64,000 nt of DNA from an uncultured Actinomycetes bacterium (GCA_963809325.1 CAWEIZ010000007.1:836851-900850), one strand, 5' to 3'. Shown: positions 26,852 to 54,627, numbered from the stretch's first letter. Notes: a model not told the origin generated them from the sequence alone. Program-made: numbers and translations.

Positions 26852-27104
26852 GATGATTGATCGATAACTTCCGCGCGCCTGGACGCCCGACGCGCTGGAA
26901 CGGCCGAATCGCGGCGGCGCTGCGGCTGCGAACCTTCGCATCGCGGCGTCCTCGGTCGGGCCAATATTCCCGATATTGGCCCTCCCTGCGTCCTTGCGCT
27001 ACTCGGTTCTCGCCCGTTCGCGGCCTGCTGGATAGCAGGCCGCTCACGATCGCCACAAGCCAAGGCTTGCGGCTGGGACATCACGGAGCTATCGATCAAT
27101 CATC
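26852..27104. repeat. structured MITE-like repeat, copy A (253 bp)
   Basis: TIRs GATGATTGATCGATA / TATCGATCAATCATC, flanked by TA (26850-51, 27105-06). Shares two near-identical core blocks with copies B and C. Internal hairpins at 26958-26982 and 27020-27043. Confidence 0.85.
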
Positions 27105-35303: not shown

Positions 35304-35935
35304 CGCTGCAGGGGATGCTCACGGCCAGGGCGCGCATCGAGACGCCCGGGATCGTCGCGTCGCTCGCCTCGCCGACGCCGATGCCCCTGGACCGGCCCGA
35401 CCACCGAACCGGTCGATGCGACCAGACGCCCGTCGGCGACGAGGCCGATGTCTCGGAAGCTGACCGGGTCAGACCGTCTGTCGAGCCGCTGGCCCAGCAG
35501 GTCGGCGCTGAAGGGAACGGCCGACGACCACCCGGCACCCGCTGCAATTGTCGATCTGCCACATTGCCTTCGAGGTACGGCACCGCTGGGGGGCCGCCCA
35601 CCTTGGCCTTGCCGCCTTTCTCGATGATCACCCGCGTGCCTTGGGAGGCGTCCGAGCAGGAAGCTCTGAAGGGTGGCGGCGTCGAGCGCCGGGTGCGCAG
35701 AGCGGGCGGCGGTCTGCACCTCGAGGCGGGCGGCGATGGTCGCCGCAGCGGTCTGAGCCTGAGCCACCTGCAAGCGGTACGCCTGACCGCCCGCCGTCAC
35801 GGCAGTCACCAGACCGCTGTCGACATTGGAGACCTTGTCGTGCTCGAGCAGCCGCAGCACGAGGTATCCGGCGGCTACCAGCGGAACCAGCGCCAGGCCG
35901 ATCAGCACGATGGAAAGCTTGTGACGAAACCGCAC
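35300..35935 (-). pseudogene. N-terminal TM plus extracytoplasmic sensor-like region upstream of the GGDEF gene, with apparent multiple frame switches
   Basis: The ORF is open in one frame, but GC3 and residue composition point to another path. It runs frame 1 (MRFRHKLSIVLIGLALVPLV...), frame 2 (ASQGTRVIIEKGGKAKVGGPPAVPYLEGNVA), frame 1 (STIAAGAGWSSAVPFSADLLGQ...VVGPVQG), frame 2 (IGVGEASDATIPGVSMRALAVSIPCS), then the GGDEF frame. Confidence 0.4.
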
Positions 35936-36078
35936 CTATGGCGCTCCCCGGGAAGCCCGTCCGTGGGCGTGTTCGATTCTATCCCGCGATGTGAAAACTG
36001 CCTCCCCCAGACGGGGGATGCCCTGCCAAGCGGAGTTCCACCGCGCCCGCGGCGTTCCTGCCGGCGGGCTGGAGCCTA

Positions 36079-36331
36079 GATCGTTGATTCCCAATTCCCG
36101 CGCGCCTGGACGCAATACTGCCTATGCAGGCCGACGGTGGCGGGGCTGCGGCTGCGAACCGTCGCATCGCGGCGTCCTCGGTCGCGCCGATATTCCCAAT
36201 ATCGGCGCTCCCTGCGTCCTTGCGCTACTCGGTTCTCGCCCATGAGCGACCTGCTGGATAGCAGGTCGCTCATGACCGCGGCAAGCCGTCGGCTTGCCGC
36301 TGGAACATCACGGAATCGGGAATCAACGATC
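36079..36331. repeat. structured MITE-like repeat, copy B (253 bp)
   Basis: TIRs GATCGTTGATTCCCAATTCC / GGAATCGGGAATCAACGATC within CTAG...CTAG. Hairpins at 36184-36208 (11 bp) and 36241-36274 (15 bp perfect). The right TA plus C forms the E1-beta stop codon. Confidence 0.85.
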
Positions 36332-37311
36332 TAGTAGGCGGCGAGCTCGCGCGCCGCCCGGAGGATGTCGTCCTCGGTCGGCAGGTACTCGTGCTCGAGC
36401 ACGGGCGTGAACGGGACCGGCGTGTCGATCGCCGCGACGCGCGTCACGGGCGCGTCGAGGTGCTCGAAGGCCTCCTGCGCGACGATCGCCGCGACCTCCG
36501 CGCCGAACCCGCCGGTGAGGTTGTCCTCGTGCACGATCATCGCCTTGCCCGTCTTCCGGACCGACGCCAGCACCGACTCGCGGTCGAGCGGCACGAGCGT
36601 GCGCAGGTCGATGACCTCGACCGAGGTGCCCTCGGCTGCGAGGGTGTCCGCGACGGCCAGCGACAGCTGCACCGTCGAGGCGTACGTGATGATCGAGATG
36701 TCGGTGCCGGCCCGAGCGACCCGCGCCGAGCCGATCGGCACGATCCGGCCCTCGGCTCCGGTGGGGACGTCGTCCTTCTCCCGCCGGTAGAGGAACTTGT
36801 GCTCGCAGAAGACGACCGGGTTGGGATCCTGGATCGACGCGCGCAGGAGCCCGTATGCGTCGGTCGCGGTGGCCGGGCACACGATCTTCAGGCCGGCGTG
36901 GTGGTGGAACCAGGCCTCGACGTTCTCGGAGTGGTACGGGCCGCCGCCGACCCCCCCGCCGTTGGGGCAGCGCACGACCAGCGGGACCGCCCAGCCGATG
37001 CGGTAGTGCATCTTGGCGGCGCAGGTCACGATCTGGTCGAAGGCGATCGAGACGAAGTCGCCGAACTGCATCTCGGCGACGGGCCGCTGGCCCGCCATCG
37101 CCGCGCCGATCGCGACGCCCGCGATGCCCGCCTCGGCGACCGGCGTGTCGATCGAGCGGAGCTCGCCGTAGGTCTGCTGCAGCCCCTTGGTGGCGCCGAA
37201 CGCCCCGCCCTGGCGGCCGACGTCCTCGCCCATGCAGAACACGCGCGGGTCGGCCTCCATCTCGTCGTGGAGGGCGGCGTTGATCGCCTCGAGGTAGGTG
37301 AGCTCAGGCAT
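36331..37311 (-). CDS. 2-oxoacid (pyruvate/branched-chain/acetoin) dehydrogenase E1 beta subunit
   Basis: MPELTYLEAINAALHDEM..., FGATKGLQ, DTPVAEAGIAG blocks; 326 aa from the ATG at 37311. Confidence 0.9.
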   Translation of the reverse strand: MPELTYLEAINAALHDEMEADPRVFCMGEDVGRQGGAFGATKGLQQTYGELRSIDTPVAEAGIAGVAIGAAMAGQRPVAEMQFGDFVSIAFDQIVTCAAKMHYRIGWAVPLVVRCPNGGGVGGGPYHSENVEAWFHHHAGLKIVCPATATDAYGLLRASIQDPNPVVFCEHKFLYRREKDDVPTGAEGRIVPIGSARVARAGTDISIITYASTVQLSLAVADTLAAEGTSVEVIDLRTLVPLDRESVLASVRKTGKAMIVHEDNLTGGFGAEVAAIVAQEAFEHLDAPVTRVAAIDTPVPFTPVLEHEYLPTEDDILRAARELAAY

Positions 37312-45484: not shown

Positions 45485-47032
45485 ATGCCGAACATCAACT
45501 CAGTGCGCGATACATGGCGCAACGTCGAACCGCGCGGCCAGCTCACGCTCGTGATCTCGTTCCTCCTGATCGCGGTCACCGGCTACTTCCTGTGGAGCTA
45601 CGCGACGAAGCCGAGCTACACGGCCGTCCAGACCAACCTGAACCCCGCCGACACGAACCGCGTGACGCAGGCGCTCGCCTCGGCCGGCGTCACGTACAAG
45701 GTCGTGAACGGCGGCACCGAGGTGGACGTCCTCTCGAGCCAGCAGTCGAAGGCGCAGGTCGCGCTCGCGTCCAAGGGCGTCGGGCCGGGCAACCACGCGA
45801 GCCTCGCCGACATGTCGAGCCTGGGCCTCGGCGCGACCGATTTCCAGCAGCGGGTCGCGTTCCAGCGCGGCCTCGAGGGCGACATCGCGTCGCAGATCGA
45901 GGGCATCGACGGCGTCACCGCCGCGCAGGTGCAGCTCGTGCTCCCGCAGGACACGCTCTTCCAGGATCAGGCCTCGGCGGCACGTGCGTCGGTGCTCCTG
46001 ACGGACAACGGCACGCTCGCGGGCTCCACGGTGGCGGGCATCGCGCACATGGTGTCCTCGAGCGTCCAGGGACTCGATCCGAACGACGTCACGGTCACCG
46101 ACAACCTCGGCCAGCTCCTGTGGCCGGCGAACGGCGCGGGCGGGGTGGGCGGCACGTTCGGCGCCACCGCGAAGCTCGCCCAGCAGCAGGCGTACGACGC
46201 CCAGGTGGCCGCCGACATCAACGCGATGCTCGCGCGAACGCTCGGCCCCGACAAGGCCGAGGCGCGGGTGAACGCCCAGCTCGATCTGAACCAGGTCACC
46301 AGCGACTCCGTGACGTACGACGGCAAGGTTGTGCCGCTGGTCGTGCAGAAGGACGACGAGAGCCTGTCCGGAAGCGGCGCAGGGGCAGGCGGCGCCGCGG
46401 GCACCGCGGGCAACATCCCGCCGGTCTATCAGGGCGGCGCGGGCGGCGCAGGTGGCTCCGGATCGACGTACACCCACCAGTCCGGCACCACGACCAACGG
46501 CGCCAACAAGGTGATCTCGCACGAGACGGTCGCGCCCGGCGCCGTCGAGAAGCAGAGCGTCGCGCTCATCTTCGACTCGTCGATCAAGCCTCCGGCGATC
46601 ACGGCGATCAAGAACACCGTCTCCGGGATGGTCGGGCTCGATCCCAGCCGCGGCGACGTGATCACGACCGCGTCCGTGCCCTTCACGAAGGTGCCTGCGG
46701 CGGGCGCAGCCTCCGCGGGCCTCATGGGCCTGCCGCTCTCGATCATGGACATCGTGAAGTACGTCGTCGGCGGCATCGGCAGCGTGATCTTCCTCTTCCT
46801 CGTCCGCAAGAACCTGAAGCGGCGCGAGGGCGAGGCGCGCCACCCGGAGCCCACCTGGCTCCGCGAGATCTCCGGCCACACGCCGATCGCCGCGCTCGAG
46901 CCGAGCATCGCCGACCGCGTGCCGCCCGAGCTCATCCAGCAGCGCCAGCAGGTTCAGCGTCAGGCTGAGGAGATCGTCACGAAGCAGCCCGAGCACGTCG
47001 CGATGCAGGTGCAGCAATGGATGAACGAGTAG
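45485..47032 (+). CDS. fliF: flagellar MS-ring protein FliF
   Basis: N-terminal TM, YTAVQTNLNPADTNRVTQALASAGV, C-terminal TM plus FliG-binding tail; 515 aa. Confidence 0.9.
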   Translation: MPNINSVRDTWRNVEPRGQLTLVISFLLIAVTGYFLWSYATKPSYTAVQTNLNPADTNRVTQALASAGVTYKVVNGGTEVDVLSSQQSKAQVALASKGVGPGNHASLADMSSLGLGATDFQQRVAFQRGLEGDIASQIEGIDGVTAAQVQLVLPQDTLFQDQASAARASVLLTDNGTLAGSTVAGIAHMVSSSVQGLDPNDVTVTDNLGQLLWPANGAGGVGGTFGATAKLAQQQAYDAQVAADINAMLARTLGPDKAEARVNAQLDLNQVTSDSVTYDGKVVPLVVQKDDESLSGSGAGAGGAAGTAGNIPPVYQGGAGGAGGSGSTYTHQSGTTTNGANKVISHETVAPGAVEKQSVALIFDSSIKPPAITAIKNTVSGMVGLDPSRGDVITTASVPFTKVPAAGAASAGLMGLPLSIMDIVKYVVGGIGSVIFLFLVRKNLKRREGEARHPEPTWLREISGHTPIAALEPSIADRVPPELIQQRQQVQRQAEEIVTKQPEHVAMQVQQWMNE

Positions 47033-48045
47033 CGCCGACCAGCATGCCCGGCCGCCGGAAGGCGGCGATCCTGCTCGTCTCGCTCGGCTCGAAGGGGGCG
47101 GCCGAGGTCTTCCGCCACCTCCCGAACGAGATGATCGAGCAGCTGACGGTCGAGATGGCCAAGATGCAGTCCGTCGAGCCCGAGTTCGCGTCGAAGGTCA
47201 TGCAGGAGATGGTCGACACCGCCTACGCGCGCGGGTATATCGCCGAGGGCGGCCTGCGCTTCGCCCGCGACGTGCTCGAGCAGTCGGTCGGGTCGCAGCG
47301 GGCCGGCGAGATCCTGAACCGCCTCTCGGTGATCATCGAGCAGACGCCGTTCGAGTTCCTGCGCAACACCCCGCCCGACCAGATCGCGGCGTTCCTGCGA
47401 AACGAGCACCCGCAGACGGTGGCCATGGTCGTCGCGCAGCTCCCGACGACGACGCTCGCAGCGAAGGTGATGGAGCTGCTCGAGGCGGAGCTCCAGGCGG
47501 ACGTCGCGATGCGGATCGCGATGATGGGCCAGACCTCGCCGGACGTCGTGAAGGAGGTCGCGCAGGTGATGGAGCGCAAGCTCGAGACGGTGCTCCAGCG
47601 CGAGTGGGCGGCCGCCGGCGGTGTCCGCTCGCTGGCCGCGATCCTGAACGCCGCGAACCGCTCGACCGAGCGGAACATCCTCGAGCACCTCGCCACGGAG
47701 GACGACGAGGTCGCCAACGAGGTGCGCTCACTCCTCTTCGTCTTCGAGGACATCCTGAAGTTGGACGACCGCTCGATCCAGATGGTGCTGCGCGAGGTCG
47801 ACTCGAAGGACCTCGGGCTCGCGATGCGCGGCGCCTCGCCCGACGTGCAGTCCAAGATCCTCGACAACATGTCCCAGCGCGGAGCCGAGATGCTGCGCGA
47901 GGAGATGGAGTACATGCCGCCGCAGCGACGCCGGGTCGTCGAGGAGGCGCAGACCAAGATCGTGGGCGTCGTGCGCAAGCTCGAGGACTCGGGCGAGCTC
48001 GTGATCTCCCGCGGCGGCGACTTCGAGGACGAGCTCATTGCCTGA
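47017..48045 (+). CDS. fliG: flagellar motor switch protein FliG
   Basis: GRRKAAILLVSLG, EHPQTVAMVVAQL, MLREEMEYMPPQRRRVVEEAQTKIV. Confidence 0.92.
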   Translation: MDERVAPTSMPGRRKAAILLVSLGSKGAAEVFRHLPNEMIEQLTVEMAKMQSVEPEFASKVMQEMVDTAYARGYIAEGGLRFARDVLEQSVGSQRAGEILNRLSVIIEQTPFEFLRNTPPDQIAAFLRNEHPQTVAMVVAQLPTTTLAAKVMELLEAELQADVAMRIAMMGQTSPDVVKEVAQVMERKLETVLQREWAAAGGVRSLAAILNAANRSTERNILEHLATEDDEVANEVRSLLFVFEDILKLDDRSIQMVLREVDSKDLGLAMRGASPDVQSKILDNMSQRGAEMLREEMEYMPPQRRRVVEEAQTKIVGVVRKLEDSGELVISRGGDFEDELIA

Positions 48046-48655
48046 GACCTTCGAGTTCGGTGCCCTCGAGGCGCCGCCGCACCTGGTCATCGAGCCCGGC
48101 ACGGCCGAGGAGCGCCTGCGGGCGATCGCAGCCGAGACGCGCCGGCGTGCGCACGAGGAGGGGCTCGCAGAGGGCCTGGCGGAGGCGCGCGCGCTGGTCG
48201 CGCCCGCGTTCGAGGCCGTCGCCGAGGCGGAGCGGCTGATCCGGGCGCGCGAGGAGGACTTCCTCCGCGCCGCCGAGCGCTCGGCCGTCGAGCTGGCGCT
48301 CGCGATCGCCGAGAAGATCGTCGGCGCGGCGGTGTCGGCCCGCCCGGAGACCGTGCTCGAGGTGGTCGGAGGCGCGCTCCTTCGCACCGCGACCCGCCAC
48401 CGGCTCGTGATCGAGGTCAACCCGGAGGATCTCGAGCTCGTGTCCGAGAGCGCCGAGGGGCTGGCCGCCCGCCTGGGCGGCGTCCAGCGGCTCGACGTCG
48501 TCGCGGAGCGGCGGGTCGAGCGGGGCGGGTGCATCGTCCGTACCGAGGAGGGCGAGATCGATGCGCGCATCGGCTCGCAGCTCGAGCGCCTCGCCGAGCT
48601 CCTGACCGAGGCCGGCCGCCGGAGCGACGCTCCCGCCCGCCTCGAGGCGGCATAG
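48038..48655 (+). CDS. fliH: flagellar export apparatus protein FliH
   Basis: Coiled-coil N-half and ERGGCIVRTEEGEIDARIGSQLERL C-terminal block. Position between fliG and fliI. Confidence 0.75.
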   Translation: MPETFEFGALEAPPHLVIEPGTAEERLRAIAAETRRRAHEEGLAEGLAEARALVAPAFEAVAEAERLIRAREEDFLRAAERSAVELALAIAEKIVGAAVSARPETVLEVVGGALLRTATRHRLVIEVNPEDLELVSESAEGLAARLGGVQRLDVVAERRVERGGCIVRTEEGEIDARIGSQLERLAELLTEAGRRSDAPARLEAA

Positions 48656-48662
48656 ACACCCG

Positions 48663-50048
48663 GTGGCGCCGGACCCGACGCTCACGCGGTACCGCGCGGC
48701 CGTGGTCGAGGCCGACTCCCACAGCAGGCACGGCCGCGTCACCAACCTCATCGGGCTCGTGATCGAGGTCACGGGCCTGCGCGCCGAGGTCGGCGAGCTC
48801 GTCACGATCTCGGCCGGGCGCAACCGCCCGCCGGTCCCTGCCGAGGTGGTCGGCTTTCGCGAGGGTCGAACGCTTCTCATGCCGCTCGGCGAGATGCACG
48901 GCATCGGCCCCGGCAGGCGCGTCGAGGCCACCGGGAACTCGTTCCGCGTGCGCGTCGGCGACTGCCTCCTGGGCCGCGTCCTCGACGGCCTCGGGCGGCC
49001 GATCGACGGCGGCCCCGAGCTGAGCGCCGATCAGCTTCGCACCGTCGCGGGGAGCCCGCCGTCGCCGATGCACCGCACGCGCATCGTCGAGCGTCTCGAC
49101 CTCGGAGTGCGGGCGCTGGACGCGCTCGTCCCGTGCGGCCGCGGCCAGCGGCTCGGGATCTTCTCGGGCTCGGGCGTCGGGAAGTCGACGCTCCTCGGCT
49201 CGATCGCCCGGTCGACGACCGCGTCGGTGAACGTCATCTGCCTCGTCGGCGAGCGCGGCCGCGAGCTGCTCGAGTTCATCGAGCGTGATCTGGGAAGCGC
49301 GCTCGAGCGCTCGGTCGTGGTCGTCGCGACCTCCGACCAGCCGGCGCTCGTCAGGATCAAGGCCGCGATGGTCGCCACGACCGTCGCCGAGCACTTCCGC
49401 GACGAGGGCCACGACGTGCTGCTCATGATGGACTCGGTCACGCGTCTCGCCATGGCCCAGCGCGAGGTCGGGCTCGCGATCGGCGAGCCGCCCGCGACGC
49501 GCGGCTACACACCGAGCGTCTTCGCCATGCTGCCCCGTCTCCTCGAGCGCGCCGGGACGGCCGAGCGCGGCTCGATCACGGGCCTCTACACCGTGCTCGT
49601 CGAGGGTGACGACATGTCCGAGCCCGTCGCCGACGCCGTCCGGTCGATCCTGGACGGGCACTGCGTCCTCTCGCGTGAGCTCGCCCACAAGAGCCACTAC
49701 CCGGCGATCGACGTCCTCGAGTCGATCTCGCGCCTGGCCACCGAGATCACGACGCCCGAGGTGCTGGTCGCGGCCGCCGGGCTGCGCGAGACGCTCGCCG
49801 CGTACCGCGCCAAGGAGGACCTGATCACGATCGGCGCATACACCGCCGGCGGCGACCCGGCCGTCGACTACGCCATCGCGAAGCTCCCTCACATCAACGC
49901 GTTCCTGCGCCAGCGGGCCGACGAGGCGTCGGCGGCTCGGGACACCGACGCCGCCCTGATCGAGCTCATGGCTGACCGCGGGGAGCCGGGTTCATTCCTC
50001 CCGGTGCGCGCCGATTACCCGGACGTCATCACGATGCCGGAGGCCTGA
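48663..50048 (+). CDS. fliI: flagellum-specific ATPase FliI
   Basis: Walker A GSGVGKST, LLMMDSVTRLAMAQREV, F1/T3SS-ATPase fold blocks. Confidence 0.95.
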   Translation: MAPDPTLTRYRAAVVEADSHSRHGRVTNLIGLVIEVTGLRAEVGELVTISAGRNRPPVPAEVVGFREGRTLLMPLGEMHGIGPGRRVEATGNSFRVRVGDCLLGRVLDGLGRPIDGGPELSADQLRTVAGSPPSPMHRTRIVERLDLGVRALDALVPCGRGQRLGIFSGSGVGKSTLLGSIARSTTASVNVICLVGERGRELLEFIERDLGSALERSVVVVATSDQPALVRIKAAMVATTVAEHFRDEGHDVLLMMDSVTRLAMAQREVGLAIGEPPATRGYTPSVFAMLPRLLERAGTAERGSITGLYTVLVEGDDMSEPVADAVRSILDGHCVLSRELAHKSHYPAIDVLESISRLATEITTPEVLVAAAGLRETLAAYRAKEDLITIGAYTAGGDPAVDYAIAKLPHINAFLRQRADEASAARDTDAALIELMADRGEPGSFLPVRADYPDVITMPEA

Positions 50049-50482
50049 TGTCCACCGCCGAGACCACTCGCCAGCTTGTCATCTTCTCGCTCGGAAGCGA
50101 GGAGTACGCCCTTCCGATCACGCGCGTCCAGGAGATCATCCGCTACACGGAACCACGGATGGTCGCCTCGCGGACAGCGTGGATCCGCGGTGTCATCAAC
50201 CTCCGAGGCAAGATCGTGCCCGTGTGCGACCTCGCCGAGCGGCTCGGCCTCTTTCTCGAGCGCTCCGACGTCGCCAAGATCGTCATCGTCGAGACCGAGA
50301 CCGGCACCGCCGGGGTCATCGTGGACGACGTCGAGGAGGTCCTGACCGTCGACGACGCCCAGCTCGAGGACGTCCCGACCGCCGACACGGCATACGTGGA
50401 CGCGATCGCCAAGCTCGACGACAGGCTCGCCATCCTGCTCAATCCGGACGGGCTCCTCGCCGGTCTGGATATCGCAGCCTAG
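50048..50482 (+). CDS. cheW: chemotaxis coupling protein CheW
   Basis: LVIFSLGSEEYALPITRVQEIIR...IRGVINLRGKIVPVCDL. ATG overlaps the fliI stop. Confidence 0.9.
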   Translation: MSTAETTRQLVIFSLGSEEYALPITRVQEIIRYTEPRMVASRTAWIRGVINLRGKIVPVCDLAERLGLFLERSDVAKIVIVETETGTAGVIVDDVEEVLTVDDAQLEDVPTADTAYVDAIAKLDDRLAILLNPDGLLAGLDIAA

Positions 50483-50681
50483 ATGGTTGACCGATAACTC
50501 CCGCGCGCCTGGACGTCCGGCGCGCTGGAACGGCGAACAGTGGAGGGCTGCGGCTGCGAACCGTCGCATCGCGGCGTCCTCGGTCGCGTCGATATTTCAA
50601 CCAATATCGACGCTCCCTGCGTCCTAGCGCTACTCGGTTCGCAACCGCCCCGGACATCACGGCAGTCATCGATCAACCATC
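50482..50681. repeat. structured MITE-like repeat, copy C (200 bp, lacks one hairpin module)
   Basis: TIRs GATGGTTGACCGAT / ATCGATCAACCATC. The left TA plus G is the cheW TAG stop. Central hairpin at 50586-50613. Core blocks are 39/40 and 27/28 identical to A and B. Confidence 0.85.
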
Positions 50682-50697
50682 TGCCGCTCAGTACCGG

Positions 50698-50724
50698 TAA
50701 ATCCGGCCCGCCGCGAACCGATTA
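50698..50724 (+). promoter_or_regulatory. sigma-28-type promoter TAAA-N15-ACCGATTA
   Basis: Exact spacing, 36 nt upstream of the cheB ATG and 17 nt after repeat copy C. Confidence 0.5.
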
Positions 50725-50759
50725 CCAGACTGCCCGGAAGGCCCGGGCACCCGAACGCC

Positions 50760-51818
50760 ATGCAGACCCGCCAGACCCCCTCACCGTCCCGTGTCCGTGT
50801 CGTCGTCGCCGACGACTCGGCCTTCATGCGACATGTGATCGCAGACGGCCTCGCGGAGCGGGGAGCGGAGGTCGTGGGGGTCGCCTCCAACGGCGACGAG
50901 GCGCTCGCCGAGTGCGCGAAGCAGCGGCCTGACGTGCTGTCGCTTGACCTGGCGATGCCCGGCCTGGACGGCATCGGCGTGCTCAAGGAGCTCCGCGCCC
51001 GTAACTCGGACGTCGCGGTGGTCGTCGTCTCGGCCTTCTCGCCGGCGCACGGCGCGCGCGCCGTCGACGCCCTCGCCGAGGGCGCGGTCGAGCTCGTCGC
51101 CAAGCCGGCGGCCGGAGTCCTCCCCGACGCGTTCTTCGCCGAGCTCTACGACAAGACTCACATGGCCGCTGCGTCGCGTCGCAGGGCCGTCGCACCGCGG
51201 CGCCAGCCGGCCGCCCCGCCGGCCCCGGCGCCCCACCGCGCGCCCGGCAGCGTCGCCGGCATGCGGGCGCTGGTCATCGCGTGCTCGACCGGCGGGCCCA
51301 AGGCGCTGGCCGCACTCGTCCCGACGCTGCCGGCCGACCTCGGCTGCGGGATCGTGATCGTCCAGCACATGCCGGCAGGTTTCACCGGATCCCTCGCCGA
51401 GCGGCTCGACCGGGCCTCCAGGCTCACGGTGCGCGAGGCCCGCTCGGGCGACAAGATCACACCCGGGGTTGCGCTCCTCGCCCCCGGCGGCCACCACCTG
51501 CGCGTCTCCGGCGACGGGACGGTGCGCCTCACCGAGGAGCCCGAGATCGGCGGCCTCCGGCCGCGCGCAGACGTGACGATCCGCGACGCCGCCGCCGTCT
51601 ACCGGAACCGGCTGCTCCTGACCGTGCTCACCGGGATGGGGAAGGACGGCCTCGAGGGCGCGCGCGACGTGAAGCGCCTCGGCGGCCGCATCCTGGTCGA
51701 GGACGAGTCGACCTGCACCGTCTACGGCATGCCGCGCTCCATCTCGGAGGCGCACCTGGCCGACGTCGAGCTCCCGCTCGAAGCCCTGACCGCCGCGATC
51801 ATCGAGGAGGCGGCATGA
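50760..51818 (+). CDS. cheB: chemotaxis response regulator protein-glutamate methylesterase CheB
   Basis: Receiver (VVVADDSAFMR...DVLSLDLAMPGLDG) plus methylesterase (ACSTGGPKAL, IVQHMPAGFT, GMGKDG). Confidence 0.92.
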   Translation: MQTRQTPSPSRVRVVVADDSAFMRHVIADGLAERGAEVVGVASNGDEALAECAKQRPDVLSLDLAMPGLDGIGVLKELRARNSDVAVVVVSAFSPAHGARAVDALAEGAVELVAKPAAGVLPDAFFAELYDKTHMAAASRRRAVAPRRQPAAPPAPAPHRAPGSVAGMRALVIACSTGGPKALAALVPTLPADLGCGIVIVQHMPAGFTGSLAERLDRASRLTVREARSGDKITPGVALLAPGGHHLRVSGDGTVRLTEEPEIGGLRPRADVTIRDAAAVYRNRLLLTVLTGMGKDGLEGARDVKRLGGRILVEDESTCTVYGMPRSISEAHLADVELPLEALTAAIIEEAA

Positions 51819-52606
51819 GCGCCCAGCCCCACGCCATCCACGACGACTTCGTCCAGTTCTGCACCGGCTTCCGCCGCCTGACCGGGATCGACCTGACGCA
51901 GTACAAGCGCCGGCAGATGGAACGGCGCGTGCGCACGTTCGCCGACCGCCGGGCGCCGGATCTGGCCGGCTACCTGCAGATGCTGTCGGGCAGCCGGGAC
52001 GAGCTGAACGAGTTCCTGGATCGCGTCACGATCAACGTCTCCCAGCTCTGGCGCAACCCCGAGCAGTGGGAAGCGCTGGCAAGGATCGTCACCGGCCTCG
52101 CCGAGACGGGGACGGTGCGAGCGTGGAGCGCCGGCTGCTCGTACGGCGCCGAGGCCTACACGCTGGCCGCCATCGGCCGGGAGGTCGCGCCGAACGCACG
52201 CCTCGAGATCCTCGGGACCGACATCGACAAGCGCATGGTGGCGCGCGCCCGCGAAGGCCTGTTCACGATCGACGACGCCCGCAGCGCGCCGCCCGCGCAG
52301 CTCAAGAAGTGGTTCGACCGCCAGCCGGACGGCTGGCGCGCCAAGCCGGAGCTGCGCCTCCTGACCCGGTTCGACACCGGCGATCTCCTGAACGACCGCA
52401 TCCAGGCTGCGCGCTTCGACCTGGTGCTCTGCCGGAACGTCGTCATCTACTTCACGGAGCCCGTCCGCGACGCGCTGCACCAGCGGCTCGTCGAGTCGTT
52501 GCGGCCCGGCGGCTACCTCATGGTCGGCTCGAGCGAGCGGGTCGCCGACCCCCGCGCAATGGGGCTCGCGTCCCCCGCACCCTTCATCTACCGGAAGGCC
52601 GCCTGA
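51815..52606 (+). CDS. cheR: chemotaxis protein methyltransferase CheR
   Basis: DLTQYKRRQMERRV, VRAWSAGCSYGAEAYTLA, VLCRNVVIYF. ATG overlaps the cheB stop. Confidence 0.9.
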   Translation: MSAQPHAIHDDFVQFCTGFRRLTGIDLTQYKRRQMERRVRTFADRRAPDLAGYLQMLSGSRDELNEFLDRVTINVSQLWRNPEQWEALARIVTGLAETGTVRAWSAGCSYGAEAYTLAAIGREVAPNARLEILGTDIDKRMVARAREGLFTIDDARSAPPAQLKKWFDRQPDGWRAKPELRLLTRFDTGDLLNDRIQAARFDLVLCRNVVIYFTEPVRDALHQRLVESLRPGGYLMVGSSERVADPRAMGLASPAPFIYRKAA

Positions 52607-54627
52607 TGGACATCTCCGAGTACCTGGGCATGTTCCTCGCCGAGAGCCGGGAGCACCTGCAGAACCTGAACCTGGCCGTCATCCGCATCGAGGAATCGCC
52701 GGACGACCGCGACACCATCGACGAGATCTTCCGCATCGCGCACTCCCTCAAGGGGATGAGCGGCACGATGGGCTTCGCCCAGATGGCGGCGCTCACACAC
52801 AAGATGGAGGACGTCTTCGAGACGTTGCGCGGCCGGTCCGAGGCCCTCGAGCACTCGGTCGTCGACGTGCTCCTGGGCTGCCTCGACACGCTCGAGGGCG
52901 CGCTCGACAGCATCGAGACGTCCGGCGATGAGGGCCTCGACGCGACGGCGCTCGTGGCCCGCCTCGGCGAGCTCGTCGGCGAGCAGGCACACGCCGCCCC
53001 GGCAGCTCCCGCGGAGAGCGGCATCCCGACAGAGATGCCCGAGATCGTGCGCGGCTACGAGGGCGACGCGCCGCTTCTCCGGATCGAGATCGAGCTTGTC
53101 GCCGACGTGATGATGCCCGCCGTGCGGAGCTACATGACGCTCGCCGCGATCGCGGACCACGGTGAGACCATCCACTCGACGCCGAGCTCCGACGAGGTCG
53201 ACACCTTCGAGGGCCGCCGGCTCGAGGCGTGGGTGGTGACCGAGCACGAGCACGCGACGATCGACGCCGCCGTGCGCGCCGTCCCCGACGTCGGAGCCGT
53301 GACCATCTCGGTGGTCGACCCGGCGACGGCCGGCGAGGCGACTGCACCGGAGCCGGCGGGTGACGCGCCGGCCGCGGCGGAGGCGAAGCCGGCGGCGCCC
53401 GCGCCGCCCTCCGGCGGCGCGGCGCCCGCCCAGGGGCGGTCTGCCACGACCGTCCGCGTCGATGCCGAGCGGCTCGACCAGCTGATGCACTACATGGGAG
53501 AGCTCGTCGTCCACCGCACGCGGGTCGAGTCCCTCGCCGCAGGGAGCGGCGTCGAAGGCCTCACGGAGGCGATCGGCGAGCTCACGCGCAGCTCGCAGTC
53601 GCTCCAGGCGATGGTGATGCAGGTGCGCATGATCGAGGTCGAGGCCGTCTTCATGCGGTTCCCGCGCCTTGTCCGTGACCTCTCGACCAAGTTCGGAAAG
53701 CAGGTCGAGCTCGTCATGACGGGCCGCGACACCGAGCTCGACCGCACGGTCGTGGATGCCCTCGGCGACCCGCTCGTCCACCTCGTCCGAAACTCGCTCG
53801 ACCACGCGCTCGAGTCGCCGGAGGAGCGCCTGGCGGCGGGCAAGCCCGCCACGGGCACGCTCGAGCTCGCCGCCCGCCACGCCGGCTCGAACGTCGTCAT
53901 CACCGTGCGCGACGACGGCCGGGGGATCAACCCCGAGCTGGTCGCAACCCGAGCCGCCGAGCGCGGCCTCATCCCCCGGGACGCGGTCGGCACGATCGAC
54001 ATGGCCCGGGCGATCGAGCTGCTCTTCACGCCGGGATTCTCGACCTCCGAGACCACGAGCGATATCTCGGGCCGCGGTGTCGGCATGGACGCCGTCCGAA
54101 ACGCGATCCGCGGCCTCGGCGGCGCCGTCGTCATGACCTCGGAGCCGGGTGTGGGATCGATCGTGCAGGTGCGCCTGCCGCTGACGCTGGCGATCGTCCC
54201 GGCGCTCCTCGTCGAGTCGCACGAGACGCCCTTTGCGATCCCGCTCGAGCGGGTCGAGCGCACCGTGAACCTCGCCGAGCAGACCGTGCGGTCGGTGATC
54301 GGCCGGCGGACGCTCGTCCTGAGCGACGGGGTGCTGCCGCTGATCGACCTCGCCGAGGCGCTCGGCTACGCGCCCGCGCCGGATGCCGGCTACGTCGTCA
54401 TCACCCGCGGCGCGGACCGGCGCCTGGCCCTCGTGGTCGAACGGCTCGTCGGCCAGCGCGAGCTGGTCACGCGGCCGCTGCCGGCCGAGGTCGGCGACGC
54501 AAGCTCCCTCTCGGGCGGCGCCGTCCTCTCGAACGGCGAGATCGCCCTCATCGTCGATTGCGACGCCCTCGCGGATGCCTGCAGCGGCGCAGCCAACCCC
54601 TCCACCGATCTGCCCACTGCGGCCTAG
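52606..54627 (+). CDS. cheA: chemotaxis histidine kinase CheA
   Basis: HPt IAHSLKGMSG, HATPase blocks LVHLVRNSLDH, DDGRGI, GRGVGMD, and a C-terminal CheW-like domain. Confidence 0.93.
   Translation: MDISEYLGMFLAESREHLQNLNLAVIRIEESPDDRDTIDEIFRIAHSLKGMSGTMGFAQMAALTHKMEDVFETLRGRSEALEHSVVDVLLGCLDTLEGALDSIETSGDEGLDATALVARLGELVGEQAHAAPAAPAESGIPTEMPEIVRGYEGDAPLLRIEIELVADVMMPAVRSYMTLAAIADHGETIHSTPSSDEVDTFEGRRLEAWVVTEHEHATIDAAVRAVPDVGAVTISVVDPATAGEATAPEPAGDAPAAAEAKPAAPAPPSGGAAPAQGRSATTVRVDAERLDQLMHYMGELVVHRTRVESLAAGSGVEGLTEAIGELTRSSQSLQAMVMQVRMIEVEAVFMRFPRLVRDLSTKFGKQVELVMTGRDTELDRTVVDALGDPLVHLVRNSLDHALESPEERLAAGKPATGTLELAARHAGSNVVITVRDDGRGINPELVATRAAERGLIPRDAVGTIDMARAIELLFTPGFSTSETTSDISGRGVGMDAVRNAIRGLGGAVVMTSEPGVGSIVQVRLPLTLAIVPALLVESHETPFAIPLERVERTVNLAEQTVRSVIGRRTLVLSDGVLPLIDLAEALGYAPAPDAGYVVITRGADRRLALVVERLVGQRELVTRPLPAEVGDASSLSGGAVLSNGEIALIVDCDALADACSGAANPSTDLPTAA

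Follow-up and report, generated by a model that had tools for sequence, protein, structure and literature searches.

A probable TA-targeting miniature transposon family of soil Thermoleophilia with a conserved structured core

We analyzed a family of palindromic repeats that is represented three times, always in the same orientation, in a 64-kb stretch of DNA from an uncultured Actinomycetes bacterium (GCA_963809325.1, CAWEIZ010000007.1:836851-900850; the whole stretch is called the window), with copy A at 26852-27104, copy B at 36079-36331, and copy C at 50482-50681, all on the + strand. These repeats probably constitute a TA-targeting, nonautonomous transposon family (MITEs, or miniature transposable elements with inverted repeats) of soil Thermoleophilia with a conserved structured core of ~115 nucleotides (nt), a reading to which we assign a probability of roughly 0.6. 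The family appears to be an undescribed and very widespread repeat in Thermoleophilia: an exact 20-mer from the conserved block 1 of the core matched at least 109 stretches in a collection of species-representative genomes and a 20-mer from block 2 matched at least 120 in metagenome contigs, i.e., at least 229 further stretches with a core 20-mer in the two collections combined. We found no description in the searchable literature and no Rfam entry.

Results

Insertion into CTAG with duplication of TA

The insertion of copy A can be followed by comparing alleles (L numbers denote collected DNA stretches that were compared with the window). The empty allele (L118, L124) has …AAGCGCTA joined directly to GATCAGCC…, and in the occupied allele (the window and L119-L122) …AAGCGTTA is followed by the element (GATGATTGATCG…CGATCAATCATC, also written GATGATTGA…TCAATCATC) and then by TAGATCAGCC…. 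The empty site reads GCGCTAGATC, and CTAG has become C/T-TA(element)TA-G; copy A is an insertion into 5′-CTAG-3′ with duplication of TA. Many elements have CTAG…CTAG flanks, and in 158 well-bounded elements TAG stands at the left end in 47% and CTA at the right end in 41%, against a background of 2.2%. Because the empty and occupied alleles reveal the TA duplication inside CTAG, the MITE nature of the repeats is established; they are also small and free of a transposase gene, have terminal repeats, are dispersed, and are present in some strains and absent from others.

TA duplication is the rule for IS630/Tc1-mariner elements (PMC2170065), and IS630 itself is reported in that source, which cites others, to prefer TA within CTAG. 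A DDE transposase of the IS630/Tc1-mariner type, acting in trans by cut and paste, probably mobilizes the copies; the target and its duplication are observed, and the enzyme family is suggested by the target alone because a search for the autonomous parent element, which covered 1.5 Mb of loci, returned no matching one. In these genomes of ~70% G+C, TA and CTAG lie mostly at stop codons, and the copies gather at gene ends and between cistrons. Insertion hits the TA of a stop codon, and the G with which the element starts rebuilds a TAG stop, as seen at all three copies in the window.

Two candidates were rejected in the course of this search. Terminal-repeat-like pairs 0.4-4 kb apart, considered in all loci as a parent element, are neighboring MITEs or chance matches. 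L081:4453-4788, considered as an attachment site, is a copy without its left arm that abuts a C-terminal fragment of a tyrosine recombinase (…HDLRH…TLDTYSHV…), an arrangement that looks like a local rearrangement. An all-against-all comparison of 719 open reading frames (ORFs) gave no recurrent neighboring protein, and no similar DNA was matched among plasmid or phage records.

Two other element-less alleles are of a different form. At the site of copy C, L110:3413-3735 reads GCAGCCTGAACGGCTCAG, the occupied allele (window 50460-50780) being GCAGCCTA, the element, and TGCCGCTCAG; L123:1855-1940 reads CGTTAGGTTCGACCGGCC, the clean empty allele being CGCTAGATCAGCC. They are not simple pre-insertion sites and may be excision footprints or independent changes. 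A further insertion, L117:868-1090 (compared with L115:2950-3025), is a class II-like element between pdhA and pdhB with a two-hairpin module inside block 1. The two genes overlap by 8 nt in other strains, and the insertion shortens pdhA by three codons and gives it a new TAG stop.

Anatomy and compensatory changes

The core measures ~115 nt in all copies and consists of a closing helix P1 (consensus GCGGCTGCGAACC … GGTTCGCAGCCGC), block 1, a hairpin P2, and block 2. The two blocks are ~23 nt each and nearly invariant (consensus GTCGCATCGCGGCGTCCTCGGTCG for block 1 and CTCCCTGCGTCCTTGCGCTGCTC for block 2), and P2, which is 22-28 nt long across the family, is free to vary in sequence while its pairing is kept. 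In the window, block 1 reads GCTGCGGCTGCGAACC(G/T)TCGCATCGCGGCGTCCTCGGTCG and block 2 reads CTCCCTGCGTCCT(T/A)GCGCTACTCGGTTC, nearly identical in A, B, and C. A previous, sequence-only reading of the window had singled out two near-invariant blocks, and they are real under two independent ascertainments (copies collected via block 1 and via block 2), block 1 being still conserved in copies gathered via block 2 (GNCGCATCGC(G/C/T)GCGTCCTC(G/A)GTCG).

Copy B is a complete long-form class I element of 253 nt, flanked by TA at 36077-36078 and 36332-36333, and its parts are given here on the + strand. The left terminal inverted repeat (36079-36098, GATCGTTGATTCCCAATTCC) pairs with 36314-36331 at 17 of 18 compared positions and is followed by the class I subterminal motif (36099-36112, CGCGCGCCTGGACG), of which CCTGG can pair with a CCAGG-like motif near the right end, and by a variable spacer between left arm and core (36113-36147), which is swapped in sister strain L114 at the same site. 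The core comprises the 5′ arm of the closing helix P1 (36148-36160, GCGGCTGCGAACC), block 1 as the 5′ strand of an internal loop (36161-36183, GTCGCATCGCGGCGTCCTCGGTC), the P2 hairpin (36184-36208, GCGCCGATAT-TCCCA-ATATCGGCGC), block 2 as the 3′ strand of that loop (36209-36230, TCCCTGCGTCCTTGCGCTACTC), and the 3′ arm of P1 (36231-36240), which is of the GGTTCTCGCC variant and, compared with the GGTTCGCAGCCGC form, has a bulge of 2 nt. The optional two-hairpin module (36241-36297) has a 15-bp stem with a GGAT loop and then GCAAGCC-GTC-GGCTTGC, and the right subterminal motif and right terminal inverted repeat (36298-36331, GGAACATCACGG; AATCGGGAATCAACGATC) complete the element. From end to end the element forms an imperfect palindrome, and either of its strands folds into a rod; copy B has a folding energy of -155 kcal/mol (z -11.6) on the + strand and -154 kcal/mol (z -10.1) on the - strand.

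Covariation was measured in 79 distinct core copies from genome contigs, collected via block 1 (set 1), and in 99 copies collected via block 2 (set 2), whose ascertainment is independent of set 1; the controls were column shuffles (500 for set 1) and alignments with the partner slid by 1-3 columns. P1 and P2 are paired at 84.7% in set 1, with 185 double-change cells against 58.7 ± 4.8 after shuffling (0/500 shuffles reach the observed value) and 14-28 in the slid controls, and with double changes at 18 of the 23 pairs. Set 2 gave 352 double-change cells against 110 ± 7 (slid controls: 27-53), and double changes were found at 13/13 pairs of P1, the best-supported helix, and at 9/10 pairs of P2. 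Well over a dozen distinct P2 stems (>12) are seen across the family, and many independent events must therefore have taken place. Furthermore, the terminal arms (~20-24 nt) pair in each copy, and the match score of a left arm averages 17.95 with the right arm of its own copy, vs. 9.86 with those of other copies; in 32 of 58 copies the own arm ranks first as partner, alone or tied. Both optional hairpins covary too. Pairing is thus kept by compensatory change in the terminal repeats, P1, P2, and the optional hairpins. The sequence-only reading had described compensatory helix changes and covarying terminal repeats from three copies, and both hold in the larger sets; the paired differences that it listed are all present, in the central hairpin, in the terminal repeats, and in the two distal hairpins, which A and B have and C lacks, and the GAACC/GGTTC pairing between blocks that it had noticed is helix P1.

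RNAalifold proposed a further pairing between block 1 and block 2. Two rare copies have a compensatory change in an interblock pair, from C-G to G-C (L086:218-332) and to T-A (L093:2859-2962); pairs 38-175 and 47-167 are often unpaired in set 2, and the remaining interblock pairs hardly vary. Because this pairing is not convincingly supported, the two blocks are treated as one large asymmetric internal loop of the core. Moreover, in a long DNA palindrome covariation can also arise by intramolecular templated repair, without selection on RNA, and since such repair can mimic it, covariation is not by itself proof of a functional RNA.

Extent, classes, and modules

Nearly all genome matches listed are metagenome-assembled genomes (MAGs) labeled Gaiellales, Gaiellaceae, Thermoleophilaceae, Thermoleophilia, or "uncultured Actinomycetes." A covariance model (R1), built from the core and used to count copies in the window and the loci, found, among the matches listed, 103 copies of the core in L001-L099 together with the window, and 99 in L126-L225; a further 22 were found in L100-L125 with L054 and L067, 11 of them being the window's own elements in sister-strain loci (L111-L122). 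Among MAGs labeled otherwise, a Rokubacteria MAG (L060) was matched by the model and a Kofleriaceae MAG (L080) is represented by a 3.9-kb contig; the 20-mer is also present in L054 (Myxococcaceae) and L067 (Bathyarchaeia), neither of which the model matches. Copies are numerous, for example, in the MAG contigs of CAVWSF01 and CAVVAA01. L060:2730-2851 and L013:7489-7625 are divergent cores in which P2 is swapped for a much longer hairpin, and one of the two lies on a 245-kb contig of a MAG labeled Rokubacteria; this copy may mean that the family reaches beyond Thermoleophilia or that the contig was misbinned.

Element size ranges from 160 to 270 nt, with peaks at 160-169, 200-209, and 250-269 nt. 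Class I, the window type, measures ~200 nt, or ~255 nt with the two-hairpin module, and ends in TA-GATGRTTGAT…; its inner arms are subfamily-specific (TCCACGCCCCCG, CGATAACTCCCG, TCCGAATTCGACG, TCCCAATTGCCG). Class II (~164-168 nt; ends TA-GTGGTCGCTCC…) has CTCC in the left and GGAG in the right arm and is often found directly before a start codon. Class III (~160-165 nt) lies between cistrons with TGATG or TAATG on both flanks, and minimal forms (~112-121 nt) are closed by P1 alone and are sometimes TA-flanked (L069, L041). In the derived classes of ~160-168 nt the left arm has an anti-Shine-Dalgarno and the right arm a Shine-Dalgarno sequence, and these may function as such. The terminal repeats of the window copies are GATGATTGA, GATCGTTGA, and GATGGTTGA, each matched by its own reverse complement.

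The core is common to at least three unrelated terminal-repeat carriers. L045:1737-1836 is a class I shell of 99 nt with normal terminal repeats and without the core, and L231:2225-2393 is a 168-nt element with class I terminal repeats and an unrelated internal sequence; shell and core are therefore separable modules. The two-hairpin module (~56-75 nt; a 15-bp stem capped by GGAT, TGAT, or GGGT and followed by a CAAGCC…GGCTTG hairpin) follows the 3′ arm of P1 in long class I copies (window 36241-36297 and 27015-27075) and lies inside block 1 in another subfamily (L117:897-976, L130, L182, L190, L217, L219, L227); among the loci compared it was seen only inside these elements. L107:3086-3251 and L074:2318-2442 are internal deletion derivatives, and the deletion in L107, which extends from one to the other of the two GTCCT repeats in blocks 1 and 2, is suggestive of slippage between these repeats. 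The class II copies L043:6069-6182, L009:3945-4058, and L031:203-316 fill nearly all the space between divergent genes, with start codons ~10-15 nt from the left end in all three and likewise from the right end in L043 and L009 (~80 nt in L031); any promoters would therefore have to be inside the element.

Class III copies in operons and constraint on the core

Class III elements are found at ribosomal-protein operon junctions in different MAGs: S10-L3 (L086), L23-L2 (L004, L108), and L14-L24 (L004, L029). Between L004 and L029 the core at the L14-L24 junction is ~95% identical, the central ~97 nt differing at four positions only, two of which form a compensatory G-C to C-G swap in P1, whereas third codon positions are 67% identical in rplN and 73% in rplX and the outer arms of the element are ~55-60% identical. 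The core has therefore changed more slowly than flanking synonymous sites, and it is either under nucleotide-level purifying selection or continually overwritten from other copies.

Overwriting is central to the reading in which the pairing is unselected and results from the way DNA palindromes behave (one arm being copied onto the other by intramolecular template switching or by gene conversion within the element), with the blocks being DNA binding sites for transposition only, kept in old copies by conversion from active ones. Quasi-palindrome correction by template switching is an established mutational mechanism, the arms are often perfect within a copy while subfamilies differ strongly, and the strands are symmetric in every test described below. 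Furthermore, the site of copy B combines near-identical flanks with different internal segments: L113 (3965-4560) lacks the 56-nt module with flanks near-identical to window 35900-36345, and L114 (3965-4400) has a different spacer, a different P1 3′ arm, and GCTGTG in place of GCGGCG in block 1. This shows that internal replacement is fast there, most simply by gene conversion between copies. However, unrestrained arm-copying should make the unlike blocks symmetric, and their asymmetry is kept family-wide, which argues against it. A core kept at orthologous operon sites of diverged genomes, together with adapted arms (Shine-Dalgarno, overlapping stop and start), is a better fit to local selection than to repeated conversion, and known IS630/Tc1 transposases bind the terminal repeats rather than the center (PMC2170065). 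We regard a purely mutational origin of the pairing as rather improbable.

P2 is exactly 25 nt long in 31/31 class III copies, and 25 of the 31 have a frame of 53-56 codons, which starts with ATG or GTG overlapping or abutting the upstream stop (TAATG, TGATG, TAAGTG) and ends with a stop that overlaps the downstream start (CTGATG, CTAATG, GTGA, ATGA); the right arm contributes a GGAG-type Shine-Dalgarno and the left arm its complement. Because open frames are common by chance in this DNA (25-77% per frame), the argument for the frame rests on the overlaps and the fixed length. As far as sequence can tell, the arrangement is best read as translational coupling preserved across a tolerated insertion, and the frame would serve in this way in ribosomal-protein and other operons. 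The three window copies do not have this frame arrangement.

This frame, which reads …AAANRRIAASSVAPVASGYERSLRPCAARFSP…, is also what speaks for the core being a small protein-coding gene with incidental structure. Against this, P2 varies between 22 and 28 nt in class I and between 22 and 25 nt in class II, which puts the blocks into different relative frames, within the core, third codon positions are conserved to the same degree as first and second ones, chance alone yields open frames at the rate just given, and the window copies lack such a start and stop. A coding core was rejected for the family as a whole, P2 length not being a multiple of three across copies and open frames being common by chance, and we consider it very improbable.

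Strand symmetry

Genes around the elements, counted with a crude ORF caller, are convergent in 26 cases (>E<), codirectional in 24 (>E>) and 19 (<E<), and divergent in seven (<E>); these counts show that orientation is neutral and that divergent promoter regions are avoided. The element ends adjoin stop codons on either side at similar frequency. Only class III is oriented relative to genes, and its frame accounts for the orientation. Mismatches of the G·U type in set 1 number 198 for the + strand (45 without subfamily-fixed columns) and 134 for the - strand (50), and in set 2 the totals are 125 vs. 135 (sporadic: 26 vs. 42); G·U is not in excess over A·C in either set. No promoter-like or terminator-like signal was found inside the element. 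A strand-specific RNA role is possible but unsupported, every strand test being neutral.

These tests bear on the reading that takes the core for a strand-specific functional RNA, transported by the transposon as cargo (a cis-regulator, a protein-binding RNA, a self-cleaving ribozyme, or a small RNA with the pyrimidine-rich, anti-Shine-Dalgarno-like loops UCCUC, CUCCCU, and UCCUU), with covariation reflecting selection on RNA folding. Two variable, compensating helices that flank two invariant strands of ~23 nt have the classic look of a functional RNA, and it would be a new one: the sequence-only reading could place the element in no known RNA family, and a scan of Rfam 15 agrees, with zero matches in the window at the gathering threshold and only noise (E ~6) in a permissive scan around copy B. 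The core surpasses synonymous sites in conservation at a ribosomal-operon site that is certainly transcribed, it recurs in unrelated carriers, and the outer stem of classes II and III sequesters a Shine-Dalgarno right beside start codons. However, class I has no orientation bias (in the window, antisense for A and B, sense for C), the two strands fold with equal energy, G·U pairs are not enriched, and promoter-like or terminator-like signals were not found in the element; moreover, the two-hairpin module breaks block 1 in one subfamily, and class III copies appear, from their frames, to be translated through, which would unfold the RNA. The possible structured RNA proposed from the window alone therefore stands as to its covariation, but orientation, folding, and G·T/A·C tests give it no strand specificity, and we consider a strand-specific RNA quite unlikely.

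A broader alternative takes the core of ~95-115 nt as an autonomous functional nucleic-acid module, either a new structured RNA (protein-binding regulator or ribozyme) or a folded-DNA recognition site for an as yet unrecognized system of structure-guided mobilization, which was captured repeatedly by unrelated TA-targeting carriers, or drives them, and was domesticated in ribosomal-protein operons. It stays alive because the core is more conserved than the terminal repeats, is common to unrelated carriers, and is conserved beyond synonymous sites in operons; all the same, we think it unlikely.

Copies in the window and their neighborhood

A covariance model search found no fourth copy in the window. 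Copy A (long form, 253 nt; core 26913-27025; TA at 26850-51 and 27105-06) is placed between the stop codon of a response-regulator gene and the start of galK, both on the - strand. Copy B directly follows the TAG stop of pdhB (- strand) and precedes a GGDEF gene, its right CTA being the reverse complement of that stop codon. Copy C (short form, 200 nt; core 50541-50656; TA at 50480-81 and TG at 50682-83) does not have the 56-nt segment that forms the two extra hairpins in A and B; it lies between cheW and cheB, both on the + strand, and its left TA belongs to the TAG stop of cheW. The copies are all intergenic, each within a codirectional gene pair, and relative to transcription of the operon A and B are antisense and C is sense. 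ORFs that overlap the elements are spurious only, with no transposase gene inside, and no tRNA, tmRNA, or tandem array was found at the elements, the copies being single. The region ~47000-53000 is a flagellar export and chemotaxis cluster (fliG/H/I, cheW 50048-50482, cheB 50760-51818, cheR, cheA), which contains copy C and sits in a genome with relatives labeled Thermoleophilia or Gaiellales. Contigs that encode proteins of the window belong to ENA assemblies in the range ERZ250394xx-ERZ250396xx.

Discussion

In the transposon reading that we favor, the two asymmetric blocks would be kept by nucleotide-level purifying selection, perhaps as a protein-recognition platform displayed by the hairpin. 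The structure may act regardless of strand, either as a stem-loop at mRNA ends and between cistrons that makes the insertion tolerable or as a cis-element of the transposon.

Several points weigh against this reading. The function given to the blocks is a guess, and conversion between copies, as suggested at the site of copy B, could give orthologous sites the appearance of purifying selection. Sister strain L110 lacks copy C, with a junction that is not a clean TA duplication, and the same is true of the empty-site comparison for the L117 insertion. IS5-family elements of the IS427 group likewise use CTAG/TA, and no autonomous insertion sequence with matching terminal repeats was found among the 1.5 Mb of loci. 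Between subfamilies, even those of one genome, the terminal repeats diverge strongly in their inner parts, which is awkward for a single sequence-specific transposase. Conservation is higher in the center than at the ends, opposite to what typical MITEs show. The sequence-only reading had held that a pure MITE explanation is incomplete, and such conservation of the center relative to the repeats is indeed unusual for a MITE; nevertheless, the TA duplication shows a MITE, and the repeats are fairly conserved over their outermost ~10 nt (GATGNTTGAT), with GAT…TGAT fairly constant in class I and the remainder varying.

Thermoleophilia are abundant soil actinobacteria that are genetically almost unstudied, and the family is a clear-cut case of a MITE with a TA/CTAG target whose insertions fall on stop codons and restore them. 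Its architecture is unusual, with an internal hairpin and two invariant loop strands that evolve more slowly than synonymous sites and are found in carriers with unrelated ends. If the core is a functional RNA or protein-docking site, a regulatory module has been spread genome-wide by transposition, ribosomal-protein operons included; if it is not, the family is a caution that strong covariation in a palindromic mobile element is insufficient evidence for a functional RNA.

A review (PMC2229807) covers bacterial MITEs that have TA ends and open frames and whose transcripts form long stem-loops. The RUP element of pneumococcus, thought to be mobilized by IS630-Spn1, is, like the present family, a nonautonomous intergenic element of ~100-200 nt with terminal repeats, a TA target, and many copies (PMC2229807). 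It differs in sequence, which is unrelated, in host phylum, and in size; its terminal repeats correspond to those of a known insertion sequence, whereas a search of 1.5 Mb of loci gave no partner for the present family, and it has no conserved structured core common to different terminal-repeat carriers. Correia elements (NEMIS) of Neisseria share TA ends, long terminal repeats, transcript stem-loops (here predicted), size variants that differ by an internal segment, and a position beside genes and inside operons (PMC2229807). However, they have an IHF site, promoter elements, and RNase III cleavage, whereas no promoter-like site was found here, and their conserved part is the terminal repeat, in contrast to the center in our family. 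ERIC (IRU) elements of enterobacteria, likewise imperfect palindromes, occupy intergenic regions that are transcribed and are conserved in their central part; they have longer variants by internal insertion at fixed points, TA ends, and open frames (PMC2229807). They are unrelated in sequence and phylum and have short terminal repeats of 7 bp, and an internal loop of two invariant, unlike blocks closed by covarying helices has not been described for them.

REP/BIME repeats, which are mobilized by RAYT transposases, resemble the family as hairpin repeats concentrated at gene 3′ ends and recognized as structure rather than as long sequence. REPs are 20-40 nt long, make no target duplication, and are linked to an HUH transposase, unlike the present elements with their TA duplication, terminal repeats of ~20 nt, and no linked gene found. 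MIRUs (mycobacterial interspersed repetitive units), reportedly described by Supply et al. in 1997, are said to be intercistronic and in one orientation, with a small frame that overlaps the upstream stop codon at its beginning and the downstream start codon at its end. The intercistronic position and frame overlaps of class III (25/31 copies) are MIRU-like, and the three window copies are not of this kind. MIRUs are units of 40-100 bp, often in tandem, without terminal repeats or TA duplication, whereas class III copies are single hairpins of 160-165 nt. The best-supported account of the family as a whole is that of a TA/CTAG-targeting MITE of the Correia/ERIC/RUP kind.

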